From: a virus | Taxonomy: Duplodnaviria; Caudoviricetes | Length of the DNA: 64,000 nucleotides | Direction: 5' to 3' (one strand) | Virus record (IMG/VR): IMGVR_UViG_3300028048_000055 | Location: 1 to 64,000 of that record | Shown: in pieces, positions 16,999 through 55,017 of the stretch | How the letters are laid out: each line of letters opens with the position of its first letter | Numbering within the stretch: the first letter of the stretch is position 1 | Notes under the pieces: generated by a model | Databases searched by the model: none | What the model was told of the DNA's origin: nothing | What the model saw: the letters and a program-made list of their open reading frames with translations, nothing else | Translations under genes and position numbers: made by a program

Positions 16999-18189
16999 AT
17001 GATGCAGATACAAGGCAAATACGGTATTGCTGAAGTTTTTACAGATAATGTGTGTACAGAAGCATATACACAAATTCTTAATATTATGAATCAATGTTGG
17101 GCAAGAAATGCTGATATTAAATTTATGCCAGATATTTCGCCCGGACGTGATGCTTTGGTAGGCACTACCATGAAAGTTACCGATAAGGCAGTTCCAAATT
17201 TAATTGGTCCAGATATTGGATGCGGTATGCTTGTCGCAAAGCTTAAGGACAAGTTTATTGAATTTGGAAAACTTGATAAAGTTATCAAGGAAAAGATTCC
17301 ATCCGGTAAAAGTCATAATGATAAAAAACATCGTTATGCTAAAGAATTTGACGAAGAATTTGAAAAACTTATCGCTAATGTTAAGCGTGAAGAACTTCTG
17401 AGTATTTGTAGCCTTGGGTCGGGCAACCATTTCATTGAATGCGATAAGGATGAAGACGGTGCATTCTATATAGTTATTCATTCCGGTTCTCGTCATTTGG
17501 GTGTTGCTACTTGTGAATATTGGCAAAATCTTGCAATTAAGGATTGTGCTGACTTGACAGCAATTCGAGGTGCTGAAATAGCCAAGTATAAGAACCAAGG
17601 AAAGACGGATGCTGAAATTAAGGAACTTATGAAGGATTATGACCATTTCTCTGTTCCTAAGAATCTTTCTTATTTGACTGGTGAACATATGCAGGGTTAT
17701 CTGCATGATATGGAAATTGTCCAGCAGTTTGCCGTTATGAACCGTGCCGCAATGCTCGATGTTATTGTCAAGGAAATGGGTTTCAAGGTTGTCGAAAAGT
17801 TTGAAACTATTCACAACTATATCGATCTTAAGAATATGATTCTCCGTAAGGGTTCTATTTCTGCACAAGAAGGCGAAAGGGTCATTATTCCTATGAATAT
17901 GAGAGATGGTTCTTTGATTTGTGTCGGTAAGGGAAATCCAGATTGGAATTATTCAGCACCTCATGGAGCAGGTCGTTTAATGACCAGAAGTGATGCTAAG
18001 AACTCAATTTCTATGAAGGAGTATAAAGATGCTATGAAAGGAATTTTCACGTCCTGTGTGTCTTCCGCGACGATTGACGAGTCTCCTATGGCTTATAAGC
18101 CGATGGATGAAATCATAGCAAATATTGAACCTACTTGCACTATCGAAAAGATTATCAAGCCGGTTTATAACTTCAAGGCGGCATTTTAA
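16999..18189 (+). CDS. rtcB: RtcB-family RNA ligase
   Basis: MPD, DIGCG, SLGSGNHFIE, HSGSR, HNY, RKG, IPMNM, SAPHGAGR, DESPMAYK motifs. Confidence 0.95.
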   Translation: MMQIQGKYGIAEVFTDNVCTEAYTQILNIMNQCWARNADIKFMPDISPGRDALVGTTMKVTDKAVPNLIGPDIGCGMLVAKLKDKFIEFGKLDKVIKEKIPSGKSHNDKKHRYAKEFDEEFEKLIANVKREELLSICSLGSGNHFIECDKDEDGAFYIVIHSGSRHLGVATCEYWQNLAIKDCADLTAIRGAEIAKYKNQGKTDAEIKELMKDYDHFSVPKNLSYLTGEHMQGYLHDMEIVQQFAVMNRAAMLDVIVKEMGFKVVEKFETIHNYIDLKNMILRKGSISAQEGERVIIPMNMRDGSLICVGKGNPDWNYSAPHGAGRLMTRSDAKNSISMKEYKDAMKGIFTSCVSSATIDESPMAYKPMDEIIANIEPTCTIEKIIKPVYNFKAAF

Positions 18190-30177: not shown

Positions 30178-31635
30178 TGAACTAACTCCGGCTTAAAAGC
30201 CGGAATCTTCTTTTTCGTTTCTACGACCTACCTTGCCGTTTACCATTGCTGGCTTAACGGTAGAGGATAATGTCTCCACGGAGGCCTGTTCCAGGCACTC
30301 GGTACGTTTAATTGTACCAATAAATTTTACGTTCTTGGCGGCATGGATATCCCTGTCCTCGGCATAACCGCAGGCACACCGAAATATTCTATCTGCAAGA
30401 CTTAATGTATTAAGACATCCACAGGCCGTACAAAGCTTGGTAGTGGGATGTGATTTACTAATCTTGAAAGATTTAGTTCCTTCCATGCTTACCAGTTTCG
30501 CCTTGACCCTGCCGAGATACGAGCACTGTACCTGCCTGCCAAACGAGTTACCACACTTCTTACCGTTTTTCTTACTATGTTTCTTCTTTTTCCATTTAAA
30601 AATCATTTCATCCTGGAAATAGACAGTATTGTAGTTGGCAATAAGATAATGTATCAGCTTGTTCGTGGCATCTACTTTCTTATTGGTAAGGTGTTCGTAT
30701 TCCTTCCTGATCTGGTTACGAAGTTTCCAATAACGCTTTGAATCCTTTTGTTTACGATGTAACTGCTTTTGCAGGTAATTCAGGTATTCGCTTTCTCGCA
30801 CATTGCAGTTGAACTTCTCGCCGTCAGACGTGGTTATGTTGTCCTTGATGCCGAAGTCTAGACCGACTTCTTTGTATAATTTATTATTTTTATAATTTTC
30901 TTTATTTAGACAAACCGAAACATGAATGTATATACCGCTTGCTTTCTTGACAATTCTAGCGTCAGCAAGTTCGTAATTATTCAAGTTTAAAATTTGATTT
31001 AAACCGTACACCTTCAAGTTCTTGAAACCGGGTATAGTAATATGGCTGTTGTCTATAATTTTTACACCGCCGGATAAGATAGGTATAGAATTACACTCGG
31101 ATTTAAATTTCAACATACCTATTTTTATACCTTTCTTCTTAGCTTTTGACAGATTGACTATATCCTGCTTGACGTTTGCAACCATTCCACGATGAAGGTA
31201 AACCGGTAATGTAATATTGTCGTATACCTCGTTTTTGTCCTTATCGAAATGCTTTATGTTCTTGTGTTCAAGATAGTTGTAATCAAATATGTCTATATTC
31301 CGTTCTTCGTTATGTTTAGACAAAGCGATCATGTCGTTACGAATCCATTTTGCCTGCTTGAAGAAAACATTAAATTTCCTGAAAGTTTCCGGTTTGGTCT
31401 GGTGGCAATTAACCTTTAACTCAAATATCCTAATTATTTGGGTTTTTCTACGTTCACGTGTTTCAGCTAAGGATTTCCTTATTTGTTCACGTTCAGTATC
31501 TGTTAATTGTTTTCTTGCCATACATTATATTTATAAAAATTATTTTTAATTTTTGACATATTTACAATTTAGGTCATTTTTATTATATTTAATATGTCTG
31601 CTTGAATTACCACCCTAAAGGGTGGAATCTTGCGC
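30177..31635 (-). mobile_element. IS200/IS605-IS607 superfamily non-autonomous TnpB element
   Basis: higher GC than flanks; right end on - strand CCGGCTTTTAAGCCGG hairpin then AGTTAGTTCAC; related hairpin CCACCCT/AGGGTGG at about 31610; no tnpA. Confidence 0.75.
30193..31521 (-). CDS. tnpB: TnpB RNA-guided endonuclease
   Basis: RuvC-I GLDFGIKD, RuvC-II YFQDE, Zn ribbon CTACG/CACG, RuvC-III DRDIHAAKN. Confidence 0.92.
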   Translation of the reverse strand: MARKQLTDTEREQIRKSLAETRERRKTQIIRIFELKVNCHQTKPETFRKFNVFFKQAKWIRNDMIALSKHNEERNIDIFDYNYLEHKNIKHFDKDKNEVYDNITLPVYLHRGMVANVKQDIVNLSKAKKKGIKIGMLKFKSECNSIPILSGGVKIIDNSHITIPGFKNLKVYGLNQILNLNNYELADARIVKKASGIYIHVSVCLNKENYKNNKLYKEVGLDFGIKDNITTSDGEKFNCNVRESEYLNYLQKQLHRKQKDSKRYWKLRNQIRKEYEHLTNKKVDATNKLIHYLIANYNTVYFQDEMIFKWKKKKHSKKNGKKCGNSFGRQVQCSYLGRVKAKLVSMEGTKSFKISKSHPTTKLCTACGCLNTLSLADRIFRCACGYAEDRDIHAAKNVKFIGTIKRTECLEQASVETLSSTVKPAMVNGKVGRRNEKEDSGF

Positions 31636-42317: not shown

Positions 42318-42437
42318 GAATGTCTGATAGACGATCAATAAAATGAAGTAAGAACAGTTGTTAGTGGTTAACCTGCAAATTACCGGTAGGTCTGGTCTTA
42401 CATGAGGGTGACGAATCGGTATTCCTTCAAGACATTC
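42318..42437 (+). ncRNA. rod-shaped ncRNA with central bubble (6S-like candidate)
   Basis: own promoter 42273-42301; GAATGTCT/AGACATTC and CGAT/ATCG outer stems, 12-13 nt bubble, GTAAGA/TCTTAC inner stem. Confidence 0.45.
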
Positions 42438-42451
42438 TTTAAAAATAGGGG

Positions 42452-42480
42452 TTTACAAAACAAGAAAAAATTTCTATATT
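42452..42480 (+). promoter_or_regulatory. sigma70-type promoter of tRNA block 1
   Basis: TTTACA-N17-TATATT. Confidence 0.8.
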
Positions 42481-42542
42481 AATCAACGTAAAAACGAAAA
42501 ATGAAAAAAAGTTTTTATATATAATATAAAATGAGGATGAAA

Positions 42543-42605
42543 ATGCAATTAGTAATAACAACAAACATGACACCAGTCAATAATCCAAAGGTAACTTTCG
42601 ATTAG
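42543..42605 (+). CDS. attenuator leader peptide 1 MQLVITTNMTPVNNPKVTFD
   Basis: GAGG SD; T/N/V/P/M-rich, matching downstream tRNAs. Confidence 0.85.
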   Translation: MQLVITTNMTPVNNPKVTFD

Positions 42606-42631
42606 TTTGTTTCATTACTCGATTTCATTTG

Positions 42632-42666
42632 AATCCTGTATGAGACAAACTCAAACAGGATTTTTT
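42632..42666 (+). terminator. attenuator terminator 1
   Basis: AATCCTGT...ACAGGATT plus T tract. Confidence 0.85.
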
Positions 42667-42680
42667 AATTTTCCTTTTAT

Positions 42681-42994
42681 TGTTCCATAGCTCAGTTGGT
42701 AGAGCGACGGACTGTTTGAAATAGACACTTATATTGGAAACGATATATGAAAATCATCGCTAAGTCGGTGAAACCTGTAAAATGGCAACGCCGAGCAAGG
42801 ATTAGAAATAATCTATGTGTAGAGACTTTATACGATGAGCCTAAGTCAGTAATGATATGGCTAAGACAAAGTCCAGACTACAAACGAGTGTCCAATTTGC
42901 GCGGTGGGGGGCTTAACACCCATGCGGATGCTTGGTAACGAAAGTTATAGTAGTATGAATCCGTTGGTCCCTGGTTCGAGTCCAGGTGGAACAG
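42681..42994 (+). tRNA. tRNA-Asn(GTT) interrupted by a group I intron
   Basis: exon1 42681-42716, exon2 42958-42994 form a perfect cloverleaf. Confidence 0.92.
42717..42957 (+). ncRNA. group I intron (241 nt, no ORF)
   Basis: U.G pair at the 5' splice site in P1, terminal G, core elements TCGGTGAAACC, AACGCCGAGC, GTAGAGACT, AAGACAAAGTCC. Confidence 0.9.
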
Positions 42995-43000
42995 CTAACA

Positions 43001-43130
43001 CTTAGACAGTAATTGTTCATTGTTACAACGTTATTGTTACGCACGATGAAATTCATGCAAGTTTGGAATCGACAATATTTTGTTAATTCTGGGTAAAGTT
43101 TCAATGAATAGCGGGTGATTATTATCTAAG
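43001..43130 (+). ncRNA. unknown rod-like structured RNA
   Basis: CTTAGA/TCTAAG, TTGTTCATTG/CAATGAATAG, TATTGTT/GACAATA pairings. Confidence 0.4.
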
Positions 43131-43135
43131 TAGAT

Positions 43136-43208
43136 GCTGATGTAGCACAGCTGGTAGTGCAGCGGCTTTGTAATCCGCAGGTCGGGGGTTCGGATCCCTC
43201 CATCAGCG
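43136..43208 (+). tRNA. tRNA-Thr(TGT)
   Basis: cloverleaf. Confidence 0.92.
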
Positions 43209-43214
43209 CTAAAA

Positions 43215-43330
43215 ATATTGTTAGGCGTTATTTAGAAGCTGCAGACTCTTTATAATGCTAAGCCGGGTGCAGCAACGGGATGTCAGCTGCGGGAAGAGCT
43301 GGTATAATCAGAGACCTCCAGTAACAATAT
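43215..43330 (+). ncRNA. unknown structured RNA
   Basis: ATATTGTTA/TAACAATAT closing stem, internal CTCT/AGAG, TTATA/TATAA, GCAGC/GCTGC. Confidence 0.4.
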
Positions 43331-43398
43331 AATTTTTACATTAGGTGGTAGTCCACTAGGAAGTTGGATCTCCTTTAAACCAACAAAAGAGAATTTAT

Positions 43399-43482
43399 CG
43401 CGGGATAGTCTAATGGTAAGATATTGGGCTCATAACCCAAGGACTGGTAAAGCTTGTCTCGGTTCGACTCCGAGTCCCGCTA
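43399..43482 (+). tRNA. initiator-type tRNA-Met(CAT) with 17-nt variable region
   Basis: C1xU72 mismatch, GGG/CCC anticodon stem. Confidence 0.85.
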
Positions 43483-43521
43483 TAGTTTAGAGCAGTGGTT
43501 AGCTTATATTATAAATATTAT

Positions 43522-44280
43522 ATGGAATTAAAAATAAAACATATATGTAAATTTTGTAATATGGAGTTTACTACTGGGGCACAATTAGGAACACATATTT
43601 CTAAACAATGTCTTAAAAATCCAAATAGAGGAATACAAAAGAATTCTAAAATTTGGAAATGTTCAATTTGTGGTAATGATTTTCTTTCACGAAGAAGATT
43701 ACAACAGCATCGCAAAGATGAACATATTAACGAAATTAAAAGCAAATACTATGGGTATCATCCGATATTGAATATACCTTGTCAATTTTGCGGTTTAATT
43801 TGTAAAAGAGCTCGTGATTTAACAAGACATGAAAAATTTTGCAAAGAAAACCCAAATAAACAAATTTGGCAAGGACATAAAACTTCGGATGAAACTAAAA
43901 AGAAATTATCAGAAGCGGCTATTAAAAATCTTAGTGGTACACATTGTAATTGGTTAAATAAAAAGAAATCTTATGCTGAAGAATATTTTGAAACTATATT
44001 TACAAATGCTGAATCACAATATCAAGTTGGAAGATACGTATTAGATTTTGCATGGACTAAATCAAAAATTTATATTGAAGTTGATGGTGAACAGCATTAT
44101 ACTAAAGAAGGTATCGAACACGATAAGATTAGGACAGAATTTTTAATAGAAAATGGTTGGAGACTTTTAAAAAGAATTAGATGGTCTGAATTTCAAAAAC
44201 TTTCTAAAGCTGAACGTGAAAATGAAATTTATAGATTATTACAGACTATCAAAATTCAAGAAGAAACTAAAACGTTATGA
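43522..44280 (+). CDS. Zn-finger + DUF559/Vsr-like endonuclease
   Basis: C2H2-like fingers, Y.LDFAW..KIYIEVDGEQH; TATAAATA upstream. Confidence 0.85.
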   Translation: MELKIKHICKFCNMEFTTGAQLGTHISKQCLKNPNRGIQKNSKIWKCSICGNDFLSRRRLQQHRKDEHINEIKSKYYGYHPILNIPCQFCGLICKRARDLTRHEKFCKENPNKQIWQGHKTSDETKKKLSEAAIKNLSGTHCNWLNKKKSYAEEYFETIFTNAESQYQVGRYVLDFAWTKSKIYIEVDGEQHYTKEGIEHDKIRTEFLIENGWRLLKRIRWSEFQKLSKAERENEIYRLLQTIKIQEETKTL

Positions 44281-44318
44281 TCGTAGTCGGTCGGTGGTGG
44301 AACCACCTAAAAAACTTG

Positions 44319-44392
44319 CGGAGTGTAGCTCAGCCTGGTAGAGCATCTGCTTTGGGAGCAGAGGGTCGTGAGTTCGAATCTCGCTACTCCGA
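44319..44392 (+). tRNA. tRNA-Pro(TGG)
   Basis: cloverleaf. Confidence 0.95.
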
Positions 44393-44395
44393 TAA

Positions 44396-44458
44396 AAGAC
44401 ATAGGAAGTTCCTATTAATGAATATTTTTTAGGCAAATAAAATTATACTTCCCGTCTT
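44396..44458 (+). ncRNA. TCCTAT scaffold RNA copy 1 (anticodon-like loop TT-TAG-GC)
   Basis: AAGAC/GTCTT, GGAAGT/ACTTCC. Confidence 0.7.
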
Positions 44459-44460
44459 AA

Positions 44461-44535
44461 CTCTCCTTCGCCTAGCTGGTCATGGCACTTGCCTTACAAG
44501 CAAGCAAAACCTTGGTTCAAATCCAAGAGGGGAGA
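44461..44535 (+). tRNA. tRNA-Val(TAC)
   Basis: cloverleaf. Confidence 0.88.
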
Positions 44536-44541
44536 TAAAAA

Positions 44542-44660
44542 TATAGCATAGGTAGTTCCTATTACTAAGCGTATAGCTCAACTGGTGGAGCAGTTACCGA
44601 AAGGTAAAAGGTTGTCGGTTCGAATCCGATTGTGCTTGCCATTCGATACTACCCGCTATA
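44542..44660 (+). ncRNA. TCCTAT scaffold copy 2 enclosing an anticodon-less tRNA body (44567-44641, GAAA loop, CCA)
   Basis: TATAGC/GCTATA, GGTAGT/ACTACC. Confidence 0.75.
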
Positions 44661-44670
44661 AGGGTTTAAC

Positions 44671-44739
44671 GGCATAAGACGTTCCTATTTAGCTCATGTG
44701 AGCGTTTGATTGATATTCAAAAGGTTATTACGTCTCGCC
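44671..44739 (+). ncRNA. TCCTAT scaffold copy 3 (mini D arm + Ile GAT anticodon loop)
   Basis: GGC/GCC, AGACGT/ACGTCT; TTTGA-TTGATAT-TCAAA. Confidence 0.75.
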
Positions 44740-44796
44740 AAACTTTTAACAAAAAGAGAACAAACAAAAACATAAATAAACAAAAGAGAAAATAAA

Positions 44797-44862
44797 ATGA
44801 CTTACGTTATGAACACAAATAATACCAACCCTAATAATAACCCTGAGGTTCTACAGGATTAG
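44797..44862 (+). CDS. attenuator leader peptide 2 MTYVMNTNNTNPNNNPEVLQD
   Basis: 7 Asn, 3 Thr, 2 Pro; downstream tRNAs Asn/Pro/Thr. Confidence 0.88.
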   Translation: MTYVMNTNNTNPNNNPEVLQD

Positions 44863-44894
44863 TTTTGTTTCATAACTTGATGAATTTTTAAACT

Positions 44895-44934
44895 GGATCC
44901 TGTAAGATATTAGAACTTACAGGATTTCTTTTTT
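44895..44934 (+). terminator. attenuator terminator 2
   Basis: GGATCCTGTAAG/CTTACAGGATTT plus T tract. Confidence 0.88.
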
Positions 44935-44936
44935 AT

Positions 44937-45021
44937 TCTAGTGTACCCGAGTTGGTAGCAGGGGGAGGACTGTTAATCCTTTGGCGAAAGCCCGTCGCAC
45001 GTCCGAGTCGTGCCACTAGAG
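44937..45021 (+). tRNA. tRNA-Asn(GTT), long variable arm
   Basis: cloverleaf with GGC-GAAA-GCC variable arm, G73. Confidence 0.85.
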
Positions 45022-45030
45022 CTAAATTAT

Positions 45031-45114
45031 TGGTAGGTACCCGAGTGGTAGCAGGGGGCGGCCTGTTAAGCCGTTGGCGAAAGCCCGTCGTTGGTTCGAA
45101 TCCAACGTGGACAG
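45031..45114 (+). tRNA. tRNA-Asn(GTT)-like, long variable arm, mismatched acceptor stem
   Basis: TGGTAGG vs GTGGACA has 3 mismatches. Confidence 0.65.
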
Positions 45115-45123
45115 CTAAAATAT

Positions 45124-45203
45124 TGTCTTGTGGCGGAATTGGTAAACGCACTGCACTGTTAATGCAGCACTTCGGTTTGTAGGTTCGATGCCTACCAAGA
45201 CAG
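45124..45203 (+). tRNA. tRNA-Asn(GTT), Leu-like D arm, 11-nt variable region
   Basis: cloverleaf. Confidence 0.88.
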
Positions 45204-45213
45204 TTAGATAAAA

Positions 45214-45286
45214 CAGAATGTAGCTCAGATGGCAGAGCGCACCGTTCGGGGCGGTGAGGCCGGAGGATCGTAACCTCTCATTCTGA
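45214..45286 (+). tRNA. tRNA-Pro(CGG)
   Basis: cloverleaf, T loop ATCGTAA. Confidence 0.9.
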
Positions 45287-45294
45287 TAAAATAA

Positions 45295-45367
45295 CAGGGT
45301 GTAGGCTAGTTGGTTAGTCGCATGGCCTGGGACCATGTTCACGCAAGTTCGAATCTTGCCACCCTGA
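45295..45367 (+). tRNA. tRNA-Pro(TGG) with C33
   Basis: loop CCTGGGA. Confidence 0.85.
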
Positions 45368-45403
45368 TACAACCGAGCACTCTGACTGTATTATAAATAT
45401 AAT

Positions 45404-46039
45404 ATGAATGAATATATATGTAAATTTTGCGGTAAGATTTGTAAAAACATAAATTCTTTAAAAAATCATGAAAGATTATGTAAATTAAATCCTAATAGAC
45501 AAATATCGCCATTTGTAAAATATAATGCAGAGCATGAAACAAGTTGGAATAAAGGGCTTACAAAAGAAAATGATGAAAGAGTTAAGCAAATGGCTGAAAC
45601 TATGAGTCAAAAAATAAGAGCAGGCCTAATACATAACTATGATCATCAAAAAGTATGGACAGAAGAACGTAGAAAAGCACAATCTGAAAGGAAAAAGAAA
45701 TTTTATGAAGAACACCCAGAAAAGCATCCTAATAGCTTAGTAGCTGGTGCACTTAATAAAATGACATATCCTGAAAAATTAGTTACTGAATATTTAAAAG
45801 AACATAATATAACAGCAGAACATAATTGGTATTTTAAAACAGAAAAATTTACAAGATATATAGATTTTTATATAGATGAATTAAAATTATTTATTGAAGT
45901 TGATGGAGAATATTGGCACAAAGATAAACAAAAAGATATTGATAAAGATAATGATGCATTAATGTATGGTTATAAAACATTAAGGTTAAAACCAAAAACA
46001 GTTATAACACAATTAAATGAATTTTTTAATATGGCATAG
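45404..46039 (+). CDS. Zn-finger + DUF559/Vsr-like endonuclease
   Basis: CKFCG..H.RLC, WNKGLTKE, DFY..IEVDGEYWH. Confidence 0.85.
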   Translation: MNEYICKFCGKICKNINSLKNHERLCKLNPNRQISPFVKYNAEHETSWNKGLTKENDERVKQMAETMSQKIRAGLIHNYDHQKVWTEERRKAQSERKKKFYEEHPEKHPNSLVAGALNKMTYPEKLVTEYLKEHNITAEHNWYFKTEKFTRYIDFYIDELKLFIEVDGEYWHKDKQKDIDKDNDALMYGYKTLRLKPKTVITQLNEFFNMA

Positions 46040-46098
46040 GAAGTTCCTATTAGCTCAATGAGCATTTGATTGTTAATCAAAAGGTTTTACTTCCCGCC
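46033..46098 (+). ncRNA. TCCTAT scaffold copy 4 (mini D arm + Asn GTT anticodon loop)
   Basis: GGC/GCC, GGAAGT/ACTTCC; TTTGA-TTGTTAA-TCAAA. Confidence 0.75.
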
Positions 46099-46109
46099 TA
46101 AATTTTTTA

Positions 46110-46180
46110 GCTTCTATAATTCAATGGTAAAATGCCGGTTTAGTAGTCCGGATTTCTTGGTTCGAGTCCAGGTGGAAGCG
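46110..46180 (+). tRNA. tRNA-Thr(AGT)
   Basis: G1-C72/C2-G71, loop TT-AGT-AG. Confidence 0.75.
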
Positions 46181-46222: not shown

Positions 46223-46882
46223 ATGGAAGAAAATTATATTTGTAAATTTTGTGGGAAACAATGTAAAAATGCTAATTCTTTACGAAATCACGAAAGATTT
46301 TGTAAAGAAAACCCTGAACACCAAGAATCTCCATGGATAAAATTTAATCATGAACGAGGCGCTTGGAATAAAGGATTAACTAAAGATACGGATGAACGTA
46401 TTAAAAAACGTAGCGAAACATTTTCAAAACGCTATAAAGGCACTGAAGAAGGGAAACGAATTTTTAGTCATCCGCAATCTGAAGAACATAAACAAAAAAT
46501 GCGTAAAATTGCAACAGAAAGACATTGGGGCGGTTGGCATACCTCAAAATCTATTGAATTTAATGGTATAAATTTAGATTCTAGTTATGAAGTTGAAGTA
46601 GCAAATCAACTTAATGAAAATAAAATAAAATGGGAAAGACCTACTTATTTTCTATGGGAAGATACTAATGGAGTAAAACATCGTTATTATCCTGATTTTT
46701 ATCTTCCAGAATATAATGTATATCTTGACCCAAAAAATGATTATTTAATAAATAATAAATCTAAAAAATTTGGTATTACTGATGTTGAAAAAATAATGAA
46801 AGTTGAACAACAAAATGGAATACGTATAATTATTTTAGATAAAGATAATTTAACATGGGAAAACATTAAAGAAAAGATTTAA
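46223..46882 (+). CDS. Zn-finger + PD-(D/E)XK (TnsA-like) endonuclease
   Basis: DSSYE, YYPDFYLPEYNVYLDPK; TATAAATA upstream. Confidence 0.85.
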   Translation: MEENYICKFCGKQCKNANSLRNHERFCKENPEHQESPWIKFNHERGAWNKGLTKDTDERIKKRSETFSKRYKGTEEGKRIFSHPQSEEHKQKMRKIATERHWGGWHTSKSIEFNGINLDSSYEVEVANQLNENKIKWERPTYFLWEDTNGVKHRYYPDFYLPEYNVYLDPKNDYLINNKSKKFGITDVEKIMKVEQQNGIRIIILDKDNLTWENIKEKI

Positions 46883-46914
46883 GTTAGTCGGGAGTTCGAA
46901 TCTCTCACCAGGCG
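46883..46914 (+). pseudogene. orphan tRNA 3' half (T arm + acceptor strand ACCAGGCG)
   Basis: GGGAG-TTCGAAT-CTCTC directly after the endonuclease stop. Confidence 0.6.
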
Positions 46915-46981
46915 TATCAATGAGAAAGGGTTGACATTTGTCGACCTTTTTTCTATATTAAAAGAAAAAGGAAATATAATA

Positions 46982-50331: not shown

Positions 50332-50395
50332 CTAAATTAAATTTTAATATTTAAAAGGATTGACATTAGTCAATCCTTTTTCTATATTATAGTAT

Positions 50396-53887: not shown

Positions 53888-54607
53888 ATGAATTACTTAG
53901 AATTAAATGATAAAGGTAAGCTCGGAAGTGATGAGCAAAAATTGGCCGACTATTTTGGAGTCGGTCATTATACTACATTTTATAAAAAGCATTTTTTACA
54001 AAATAAAATAAAACTCACTAAGGATGATTTTATTGCAGGCGTAATTCCAGTAATGTTTTGCGCTATGAAAAAACTTAACATTGATTATAAGCATGATGAT
54101 TATCCTGAACAGCTACAAAAATATCTTCATCGTAGAATTTGGGAATCGACTCTTGGTCGTATAAAAACTAGTGTCTTTAATGATTATCTATTTGGACCTG
54201 TTTTTATTAAACCAAAAGATAAATTAAAAAAGTTTACTGGTTTTGTTTTAAATTCAAGAGATGATTGGCTTCTTACTGAAGGCGCAGGCGATAGCACGAA
54301 AATTATCTGTTCAAAACCGGTAAAATGGGTTACAGAATATCGTATTCCTGTAATTAATGGCGTCGCAAGAGATTATTGTCATTATTTTGGAAATCCAGGT
54401 ATATTTGTAGATAAGGCTGTAATTCAAAATATGATAGGTGATTGGAAAGATTCTCCAAAAGCATATTGCTTGGATGTTGGAGTCTTAGATACTGGAGAAA
54501 CTGCATTAATAGAAGTTAATGATGCATTTAGCTGCGGTAGTTACTCAATGAGTGCTGAAACCTATGGTGATTTACTGACAACAAGATGGAATGAGTTAAA
54601 AGGTTGA
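53888..54607 (+). CDS. ATP-grasp (R2K/DUF4343-like) protein
   Basis: DYPEQL, FIKP..K.FTG, EYR, LDVG..LIEVND. Confidence 0.8.
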   Translation: MNYLELNDKGKLGSDEQKLADYFGVGHYTTFYKKHFLQNKIKLTKDDFIAGVIPVMFCAMKKLNIDYKHDDYPEQLQKYLHRRIWESTLGRIKTSVFNDYLFGPVFIKPKDKLKKFTGFVLNSRDDWLLTEGAGDSTKIICSKPVKWVTEYRIPVINGVARDYCHYFGNPGIFVDKAVIQNMIGDWKDSPKAYCLDVGVLDTGETALIEVNDAFSCGSYSMSAETYGDLLTTRWNELKG

Positions 54608-54638
54608 CGAAAGTCAACCTTTTTTCTATATTTAAATT

Positions 54639-54953: not shown

Positions 54954-55017
54954 TAGGATAAAGGTTGACGAAAGTCAATCTTTTTTCTATATTATAATAT
55001 GGAATAAAGGATTAATA

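Follow-up and report, generated by a model that had tools for sequence, protein, structure and literature searches.

Can a phage operon release its transfer RNA (tRNA) genes in separately controlled sets, and what would decide between them? The question is raised by the first 64 kilobases (kb) of the 165-kb IMG/VR virus record IMGVR_UViG_3300028048_000055 (32% G+C), which comes from a huge uncultured phage; this stretch is hereafter the window. The record is approximately 40% complete according to the CheckV estimate, complete relatives being 411–424 kb in size. Between 42.4 and 63.3 kb the window carries an array of at least 38 tRNA genes on the + strand, interspersed with open reading frames (ORFs) resembling zinc-finger/DUF559 endonucleases. 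The array consists of six units of one design, in each of which a short ORF followed by a terminator precedes a tRNA block; we refer to them as modules 1 to 6. Folding models confirmed that the second unit, module 2 (44797–44934), has the anatomy of a ribosome-mediated (leader-peptide) transcription attenuator, and we consider it likely that it works as one inside the tRNA operon. Its in silico support comprises the anatomy itself with its statistical significance, the conservation of the unit, the switch geometry and an upstream interval in which neither an early promoter nor a terminator was found.

The leader ORF of module 2 starts with the ATG at 44797 and ends with the TAG at 44860–62 (predicted peptide MTYVMNTNNTNPNNNPEVLQD). 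All seven asparagine (Asn) codons that the initial annotation had counted were located within it (codon starts 44812, 44818, 44821, 44827, 44833, 44836 and 44839). After the start codon, seven of the 20 codons specify Asn, and 12 of 20 specify Asn, threonine (Thr) or proline (Pro). Among the 1134 ATG-started ORFs of 15–40 codons found in the six frames of the whole 165-kb record, the leader ranked first for its Asn content and likewise for its combined Asn, Thr and Pro content; compared with proteome frequencies, the binomial P values were 3.5e-4 and 1e-5, respectively. A similar correspondence was found throughout the array: each of the six leaders was enriched 2.0- to 3.9-fold over proteome frequency in the amino acids of its own tRNA block, and approximately 1-fold or less in those of other blocks, except for the overlap between modules 1 and 2 (Asn, Thr, Pro) and for leader 6 on block 5 (1.7-fold, due to shared serine).

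Two mutually exclusive structures follow the leader. The antiterminator pairing quoted in the initial annotation was present, 44853–65 pairing with 44890–94 and 44896–903 (13 base pairs (bp), one bulge), and its 5' arm (44852–65) takes in the final three sense codons plus the stop codon. The terminator comprises 12 bp (44895–906 with 44916–927) followed by a U-run to 44934, and the first tRNA begins 2 nucleotides (nt) further on, at 44937. The free RNA folded with −27.5 kcal/mol (z −3.7), a value that none of 200 dinucleotide shuffles reached, and the terminator alone (−14 kcal/mol, z −3.4) was better than all 200 dinucleotide shuffles. In the free RNA an extended antiterminator formed, in which the last eight leader codons paired with the shared strand and the terminator 3' arm. 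To model the ribosome, the RNA was masked to 10 or 13 nt past the first base of the codon in the ribosomal A-site and then refolded. With the A-site on codons 5–13 or 5–14, depending on the footprint, the minimum-energy fold contained no terminator pair and the antiterminated state was favoured; from Pro16 to the stop codon, the antiterminated state dropped from −16 to −1 kcal/mol and the terminator formed. Ribosome position thus selected the fold in silico for both footprint edges (+10 and +13). Because of where the masked fold flips, the part of the leader rich in Asn, Thr and Pro would be the part in which a stall gives read-through, and the tail devoid of these residues the part in which occupancy gives termination. 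In these models, the match between the Asn run and the flip of the fold is not one that chance predicts.

No competing upstream partner for the antiterminator 5' arm, that is, no 1:2 hairpin as in trp-type super-attenuation, was found in the folds of module 2, and an untranslated leader should therefore read through. Between the stop codon and the shared strand lies a small hairpin (44869–89) whose position is retained in relatives despite differing sequences (87% of cells paired); it could be an RNA polymerase pause site that synchronises transcription with the ribosome. A scan of 42400–45000 with Rfam covariance models at a permissive threshold revealed no leader, T-box or group I family, the sole match being a sub-threshold one at chance level (trpB motif, 24.3 bits, gathering score 59, E 2.1).

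Virus and metagenome collections were scanned with patterns anchored on the leader tail only, which left the 3' arm and the terminator unconstrained; these scans recovered 15 further distinct sequences with the full unit (16 with the window). All relatives had an in-frame ATG, five to seven Asn codons and a stop codon inside the 5' arm, and across the 16 sequences 90% of the antiterminator cells and 97% of the terminator cells were paired, while loops and spacers varied freely. The leader tail was invariant except for the third positions of two codons. The Asn, Thr and Pro content of the leaders was retained and the order of the residues reshuffled, as expected if selection acts on codon content and not on the peptide. 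The gene context was equally constant: in the 14 loci that could be mapped, tRNA-Asn(GTT) (anticodons in brackets) was always the first decoding tRNA behind the switch, in some cases after an anticodon-less tRNA mimic, and all 14 arrays also contained tRNA-Pro. The window shares the hallmarks of this family: its leader has the conserved five-residue tail and a stop codon lying within the 5' arm, the terminator core is identical in kind, and the first decoding tRNA is tRNA-Asn(GTT). Other searches were less productive. A 16-base motif gave 38 matches, of which six were relatives and the remainder chance, and it was abandoned; the neighbouring 209-amino-acid ORF retrieved two close relatives and two distant contigs without the array, and megablast and blastn searches of cultured-phage records matched tRNA-Pro fragments or nothing.

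The relatives fall into three architectures. In class A (the window, G001, G002, L075 and L081–L083, together with L072 and L084, which are represented without their upstream part), a promoter and module 1 precede a standard set of Asn, Pro, Thr(TGT), Met and Val tRNAs, which is followed by a promoterless module 2 and Asn, Pro and Thr(AGT) tRNAs. Class B (G003/G004, L068, L078 and L086) has no module 1; here a consensus promoter and a conserved box lead directly into a switch of the module-2 type and Asn, Pro and Thr tRNAs. In class C (G005, L079 and L071), the promoter and the box are followed by a module-2-type switch and long-arm Asn, Pro and Thr(AGT) tRNAs, and a second promoter without attenuator then serves the standard set, which is thus unattenuated and downstream. 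Among the leaders of classes A and B, insertions and deletions were single whole codons. The last nine codons varied only at two synonymous third positions. The box is an 18-nt A/T inverted repeat (8+3+8) adjoining the ribosome-binding site. Throughout the 165-kb record it occurs only before the five other attenuator leaders (42513, 49005, 52094, 57349 and 60326), and its core is one base off the late-promoter octamer described below. It goes with the leader and not with the promoter, since at module 4 it lies approximately 190 nt from the promoter, behind a tRNA mimic.

Several observations weigh against module 2 being a working attenuator or limit how far the proposal reaches. When the A-site was placed on the final one or two Asn codons, the fold with the terminator was better by 1–3 kcal/mol at equilibrium, so that read-through from a stall there would have to follow a kinetic route. 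When changes were counted on the 16 aligned module-2-type sequences, no pair had changed on both sides; as both stems are almost invariant, structural support comes from conservation and energy and not from compensatory change. The ribosome-binding site of the leader is weak, and leader translation is a prediction: the GAGA before the ATG is present in all nine aligned 5' untranslated regions (UTRs) of the module-2 type, and this tetramer was enriched 2.8-fold before the long ORFs of this phage, as opposed to 8- to 9-fold for AGGA and GGAG. Both Pro codons of the leader are CCT, whereas the tRNAs of the block are Pro(CGG) and Pro(TGG), and one of its Thr codons (ACA) is decoded by the tRNA set of module 1. 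Finally, late-promoter motifs upstream may allow module 1 to be bypassed.

How, then, does transcription reach module 2? A promoter matrix was built from 35 strict consensus sites in the record (34 on the + strand), on which real sites score 11–42 bits. Between the module-1 terminator and 44797 the best site scored −4.9 bits, in agreement with the initial annotation, which had seen no promoter directly upstream. A scan of the same 2.1-kb interval for hairpins followed by a U-run found no intrinsic terminator, while it recovered the terminators of module 1, module 2 and the end of the block. Because neither an early-type promoter nor a terminator lies between the modules, early transcripts would reach module 2 only through module 1, and the promoterless arrangement was intact in nine diverged relatives. 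It had been claimed that module 2 lies in series behind attenuator 1. For early-type transcription in this genome the claim holds up reasonably well, and strict series wiring early in infection is somewhat favoured by the sequence; it is not universal, because two class A relatives (G002 and L082) have a full consensus promoter between modules 1 and 2. In this genome, late input may also occur.

The alternative that survives best is that module 2 is a real attenuator fed late, either from CATAAATA at 44771–78 or from the late promoter at 43510, and hence an independent first-tier gate. The octamer TATAAATA occurs 37 times on the + strand and 16 times on the − strand of the genome; 16 of the + sites lie just before ORFs, nine of them with an ATG 4 nt downstream, and judged by this distribution the octamer behaves as a T4-type late promoter. 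Among the nine cases (43510, 45392 and 46211 in the window; 72126, 74166, 78576, 80467, 120404 and 123749 in the genome) are a 784-amino-acid ORF and each of the three zinc-finger/DUF559 endonuclease-like ORFs of this array section, and the spacing of 4 nt implies leaderless or near-leaderless late mRNAs. From the exact octamer at 43510, transcripts would meet no terminator over the 1.29 kb down to module 2. Moreover, two relatives (L075 and L084) have the exact octamer where the window has the 7-of-8 match CATAAATA, whose distance of 18 nt to the ATG resembles that of late genes with a ribosome-binding site. Genome-wide, however, CATAAATA showed neither strand bias (10 sites per strand) nor an association with ORFs, and a 7-of-8 match is expected by chance in about one in five AT-rich stretches of 60 nt (estimated from base composition). 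Close relatives have either T or C as its first base, a polymorphism that speaks against selection as a promoter, and G001 has neither the endonuclease gene nor a late motif between the modules. Taken together, an independent, late-fed gate is possible, although we hold it to be the less probable arrangement. In a separate attempt, the region of module 2 that corresponds to the box was considered as a decayed relic; this idea was dropped once the replaced stretch proved to differ from the late-promoter octamer at a single base.

The relationship of the two modules bears on which is the original gate. Their switch parts aligned, as had been noted from shared sequence motifs (local alignment score 39; shuffle mean 17.7, maximum 30, z 8.7), whereas modules 3, 4 and 6 gave z ≤ 0.6 against module 2 and module 5 a small excess within the shuffle maximum (z 3.6). 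By this alignment, module 1 is a paralogue of module 2: the two share the switch, the context of the stop codon, the terminator core and an overlapping amino-acid set (Asn/Thr/Pro). Module 1 differs in having its own promoter, the conserved box and a stronger ribosome-binding site, all of which module 2 lacks, and in its leader, whose ACA, CCA, GTA and ATA codons fit its own Thr(TGT), Pro(TGG), Val(TAC) and CAT tRNAs. In addition, its antiterminator uses the stretch after the stop codon, which pairs with the inner terminator hairpin, whereas module 2 uses the last sense codons. The initial annotation held that module 2 had probably been duplicated from attenuator 1. The paralogy stands, but the proposed direction is at odds with the distribution of the modules: module 1 was found only in the clade of the window (class A), while the module-2 type is present in all three recovered architectures and is the promoter-driven first switch in two of them (B and C). 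Furthermore, over its whole length the 5' UTR of class A module 2 can be aligned base for base with its promoter-proximal counterparts in classes B and C; the exceptions are the −10 region, where the end of a scaffold RNA stands instead, and the box, which has given way to other sequence. On account of this distribution and the UTR homology, the module-2 type looks older. We moderately favour a scenario in which it is the ancestral unit that lost its promoter and module 1 is the derived paralogue, whose leader would then have been re-tuned to ACA, CCA, GTA and ATA codons; module 2 would accordingly descend, again with modest confidence, from a promoter-proximal Asn/Thr/Pro attenuator common to related phages of approximately 410–425 kb. 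Polarising the duplication by distance gave no rooted order, module 1 being 68–73% identical to every module-2 type, and the RtcB gene gave no root either, this genome showing 86% identity to each of G001, G003 and G005.

Three further observations concern the surroundings of module 1 and the RtcB gene. The module-1 tRNA-Asn(GTT) (42683–42995) is of class I and carries an insert of approximately 245 nt after the anticodon, for which the group I intron model gave no match at E ≤ 5; G001 and several other relatives do not have the insert. Between tRNA-Thr(TGT) and the CAT tRNA lies a conserved element of approximately 105 nt (43219–43325) that is nearly identical in G005; compared with G001 its inner helix changes on both strands in a compensating manner, no Rfam match was obtained at E ≤ 5, and it looks like a novel structured RNA without family. 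The RtcB RNA ligase gene itself is found at 16999–18189 (+) in the window, while in G005 it lies only approximately 3 kb upstream of the tRNA array.

The block behind module 2 had been described as three Asn, two Pro and one Thr tRNA. Two of the Asn tRNAs are intact, but the middle Asn copy (45038–45106) has a broken acceptor stem. Five consecutive substitutions, all in the 3' acceptor strand, are the only differences from an intact copy in G005; the Rfam match of the middle copy is confined to model positions 8–63, and it is probably dead, either a pseudogene or a recombination scar. Both intact Asn(GTT) copies have a long variable arm capped by a GNRA loop. The description of the set as structurally different is apt for Asn, where the long-arm copies contrast with the class I copy of module 1, but the block is not just a spare set, as it adds Pro(CGG) and Thr(AGT).

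This bears on a second alternative, in which module 2 acts strictly as a second tier, its structurally different backup tRNAs being released only if the module-1 set fails to restore decoding, for example when a host nuclease also destroys the standard phage tRNA-Asn. The 2.1-kb path between the modules, free of early promoters and terminators, would suit such a role, as would the contrast between the GNRA-capped long-arm Asn tRNAs and the class I tRNA-Asn of module 1, interrupted here by its insert. In the G005 lineage (class C) only the long-arm set is gated and the standard set is constitutive, which fits a reserve function, and a nuclease with a matching target exists in Escherichia coli, where PARIS AriB cuts tRNA-Asn(GUU) and tRNA-Thr(UGU), besides tRNA-Lys (PMC12409363). 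In class B, however, the same attenuator is the sole one, and the Asn tRNAs behind it are of ordinary size. In two class A relatives a promoter separates modules 1 and 2; the block brings in new anticodons rather than duplicating the first set; and all Asn copies have one anticodon loop, so that nothing suggests a different nuclease sensitivity. Closure of module 1 also shuts module 2, and for this reason the wiring amounts to a plain AND gate and not to the sensing of failure. A backup function in this strict sense is unlikely.

By analogy with AriB, the two attenuators might also form a ribosome-read circuit that gauges Asn, Thr and Pro decoding and serves as an inducible counter-defence. 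The long-arm tRNA-Asn would then be released only while stalling persists, for instance after attack by an AriB-type nuclease, and the series, parallel or single wiring would have been reshuffled between lineages as hosts and defences changed. We regard this proposal as speculative and of low probability. The search for tRNA-Lys(TTT) in the 165-kb record found none, which leaves the parallel with the AriB targets incomplete.

Finally, that module 2 is only operon punctuation, a partly efficient terminator or processing hairpin behind a fortuitous, untranslated ORF on which ribosomes play no role, agrees with the invariant stems, the weak ribosome-binding site and the frequency of Asn codons in AT-rich DNA, but it is very improbable given that the ORF ranks at the very top of 1134 small ORFs from the same AT-rich genome, that the Asn run stops where ribosome masking flips the fold, that ORF, frame and composition are retained over three architectures despite the altered residue order, and that five further leader–terminator units in the array each fit their own tRNA block.

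For the preferred reading, a leader-peptide attenuator inside the tRNA operon, we infer that the leader is translated, that stalling controls read-through and that the gated tRNAs feed back on the switch. RNA polymerase would come from upstream: early in infection it would start at the 42452 promoter and pass module 1, and later it might also start at late promoters. It would then transcribe the unstructured A-rich UTR and the 21-codon ORF. When translation is fast, a ribosome at the last codons or the stop codon would cover 44842–44865, leaving 44890–906 to pair with 44916–927, and transcription would stop in the U-run, 2 nt before the tRNA genes. A ribosome stalled in codons 5–15 would leave the 5' arm free to pair with the shared strand as this emerges, and the resulting antitermination would permit transcription of two long-arm tRNA-Asn, two tRNA-Pro and tRNA-Thr(AGT). 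The new tRNAs would then speed up decoding and the gate would close, completing a negative feedback. An untranslated leader is also predicted to read through, and the weak ribosome-binding site would consequently set the basal level. Early in infection the block would require both gates to be open, since module 2 has no early promoter in this genome; such AND logic would separate hunger for Asn, Pro and Thr codons from the hunger that module 1 senses, which is for Val, Ile, Met and Thr(ACA) codons. The features on which this scheme rests are listed in Table 1.

Table 1. Positions of module 2, its upstream region and the gated block in the window, with promoters between the modules in two close relatives.
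Feature	Position	Strand	Remarks
Early promoter TTTACA-17-TATATT	42452–42480	+	Nearest consensus promoter upstream; drives module 1 and, via read-through, predicted to reach module 2
Module 1	42543–42669	+	20-codon leader 42543–42605, terminator 42631–42663, U-run
T4-type late octamer TATAAATA, exact	43510–43517	+	4 nt before ATG of zinc-finger/DUF559 endonuclease-like ORF 43522–44280
Module-2 leader 5' UTR	44740–44796	+	A-rich; starts directly after scaffold RNA (3' end 44739); homologous to promoter-proximal UTRs of relatives, box replaced
CATAAATA, 7-of-8 match to late octamer	44771–44778	+	At box position, 18 nt before ATG
Weak Shine-Dalgarno-like GAGA	44786–44789	+	7 nt before ATG
Leader ORF	44797–44862	+	21 codons and TAG; 7 Asn, 3 Thr and 2 Pro codons; present in all 15 distinct relatives
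Sensing window (codons 5–15)	44809–44841	+	All seven Asn, two Thr and one Pro codon; predicted from ribosome-mask folding
Leader tail	44842–44865	+	Segment 1 (44842–51) pairable with terminator 3' arm; segment 2 (44852–65) is the antiterminator 5' arm
Small hairpin (5 bp) and five U	44869–44889	+	Candidate pause site
Shared strand	44890–44906	+	Antiterminator 3' arm and terminator 5' arm at once
Terminator 3' arm and U-run	44916–44934	+	
Gated block	44937–46180	+	tRNAs, pseudo-tRNA, endonuclease-like ORF, scaffold RNA
tRNA-Asn(GTT), long arm	44937–45022	+	Intact
Asn-like pseudo-tRNA	45038–45106	+	Broken acceptor stem
tRNA-Asn(GTT), long arm	45123–45204	+	Intact
tRNA-Pro(CGG)	45214–45286	+	
tRNA-Pro(TGG)	45295–45367	+	
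Endonuclease-like ORF	45404–46039	+	Followed by a scaffold RNA
tRNA-Thr(AGT)	46110–46180	+	
End of transcription unit	46925–46959	+	Terminator hairpin that also carries the next consensus promoter
Inter-module consensus promoters in two close relatives	L049 16462–16490; L082 5486–5514		Oriented as mapped

Some neighbouring features of the array deserve mention. Recurring scaffold RNAs, recognisable by the GTTCCTAT motif, are found at 44396–44740 and 46033–46100. One scaffold stops exactly at the start of the module-2 UTR, and two scaffolds bear hairpins with canonical 7-nt anticodon-like loops (GAT at 44671–44740 and GTT at 46033–46100). Four composite hairpins (46925–46959, 50353–50388, 54598–54632 and 54960–54993) contain the −35 hexamer of a consensus promoter inside the terminator stem, so that the end of one transcription unit and the start of the following one coincide in a single element. 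The endonuclease-like ORF 46223–46882 is immediately followed by a partial tRNA (46883–46918), which consists of the 3' T arm and acceptor strand and has no 5' half; at the equivalent position G001 has a tRNA-Tyr(GTA). The module-2 leaders of the window and of G001 contain a Tyr codon, where that of G002 has Phe, and the G002 block ends with Arg(CCG). Outside the array, an ORF resembling IS605 OrfB/TnpB was found at 30193–31521 (−).

If confirmed, module 2 would open a direct way to ask what purpose large tRNA arrays serve in huge phages and when these are used, and it would be a compact natural part that senses codon-specific translation speed. The device would operate away from a promoter, as an internal gate by which one operon is subdivided into tRNA sets under separate control. 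As the conserved core unit, the module-2 type offers a natural rewiring series, with three architectures and 15 distinct relatives. The leaders of paralogous switches appear to have been adjusted to the codons that their own tRNA sets read. The promoter between the modules in two close relatives indicates that the series wiring differs among otherwise similar phages.

Known examples of regulatory leaders in series are Bacillus subtilis thrZ, with its three tandem T-box leaders, and tandem riboswitches. As in these systems, a transcript of the window would pass two successive termination decisions, which may give a sharper or AND-type response. Those leaders, however, are RNA sensors of uncharged tRNA or metabolites that stand back to back before one gene, whereas modules 1 and 2 are predicted to be read by the ribosome, lie 2.2 kb apart, each have their own gene set and show no T-box match. 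The closer likeness is to the multivalent leader-peptide attenuators of enterobacteria, thrL, ilvL, hisL and trpL, and to pheM of the pheST synthetase operon. Module 2 shares with all of these a short leader ORF rich in regulatory codons (its translation being predicted here); in common with the enterobacterial attenuators, it has a stop codon beside the antiterminator 5' arm, mutually exclusive antiterminator and terminator structures with one common strand, and a terminator immediately before the regulated genes. Like thrL and ilvL, it would sense several amino acids (Asn, Thr and Pro). It differs from trpL in that it has no 1:2 hairpin, a feature not required for the class, and in that an untranslated leader would read through rather than terminate. 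It further differs from the enterobacterial examples in being operon-internal, without its own promoter, phage-encoded and without an Rfam leader family. Full-text literature searches returned no description of leader-peptide attenuator control of tRNA genes, nor of long-arm phage tRNA-Asn. The nearest precedent for a target in the translation apparatus is pheM-pheST; module 2 precedes tRNA genes and endonuclease-like ORFs and not biosynthesis or synthetase genes. Leader-peptide attenuation is textbook knowledge for amino-acid operons; here it would gate tRNA genes through a very short feedback loop, in which, because the regulated genes are themselves tRNA genes, the decoding speed that is sensed would be restored directly by the product.

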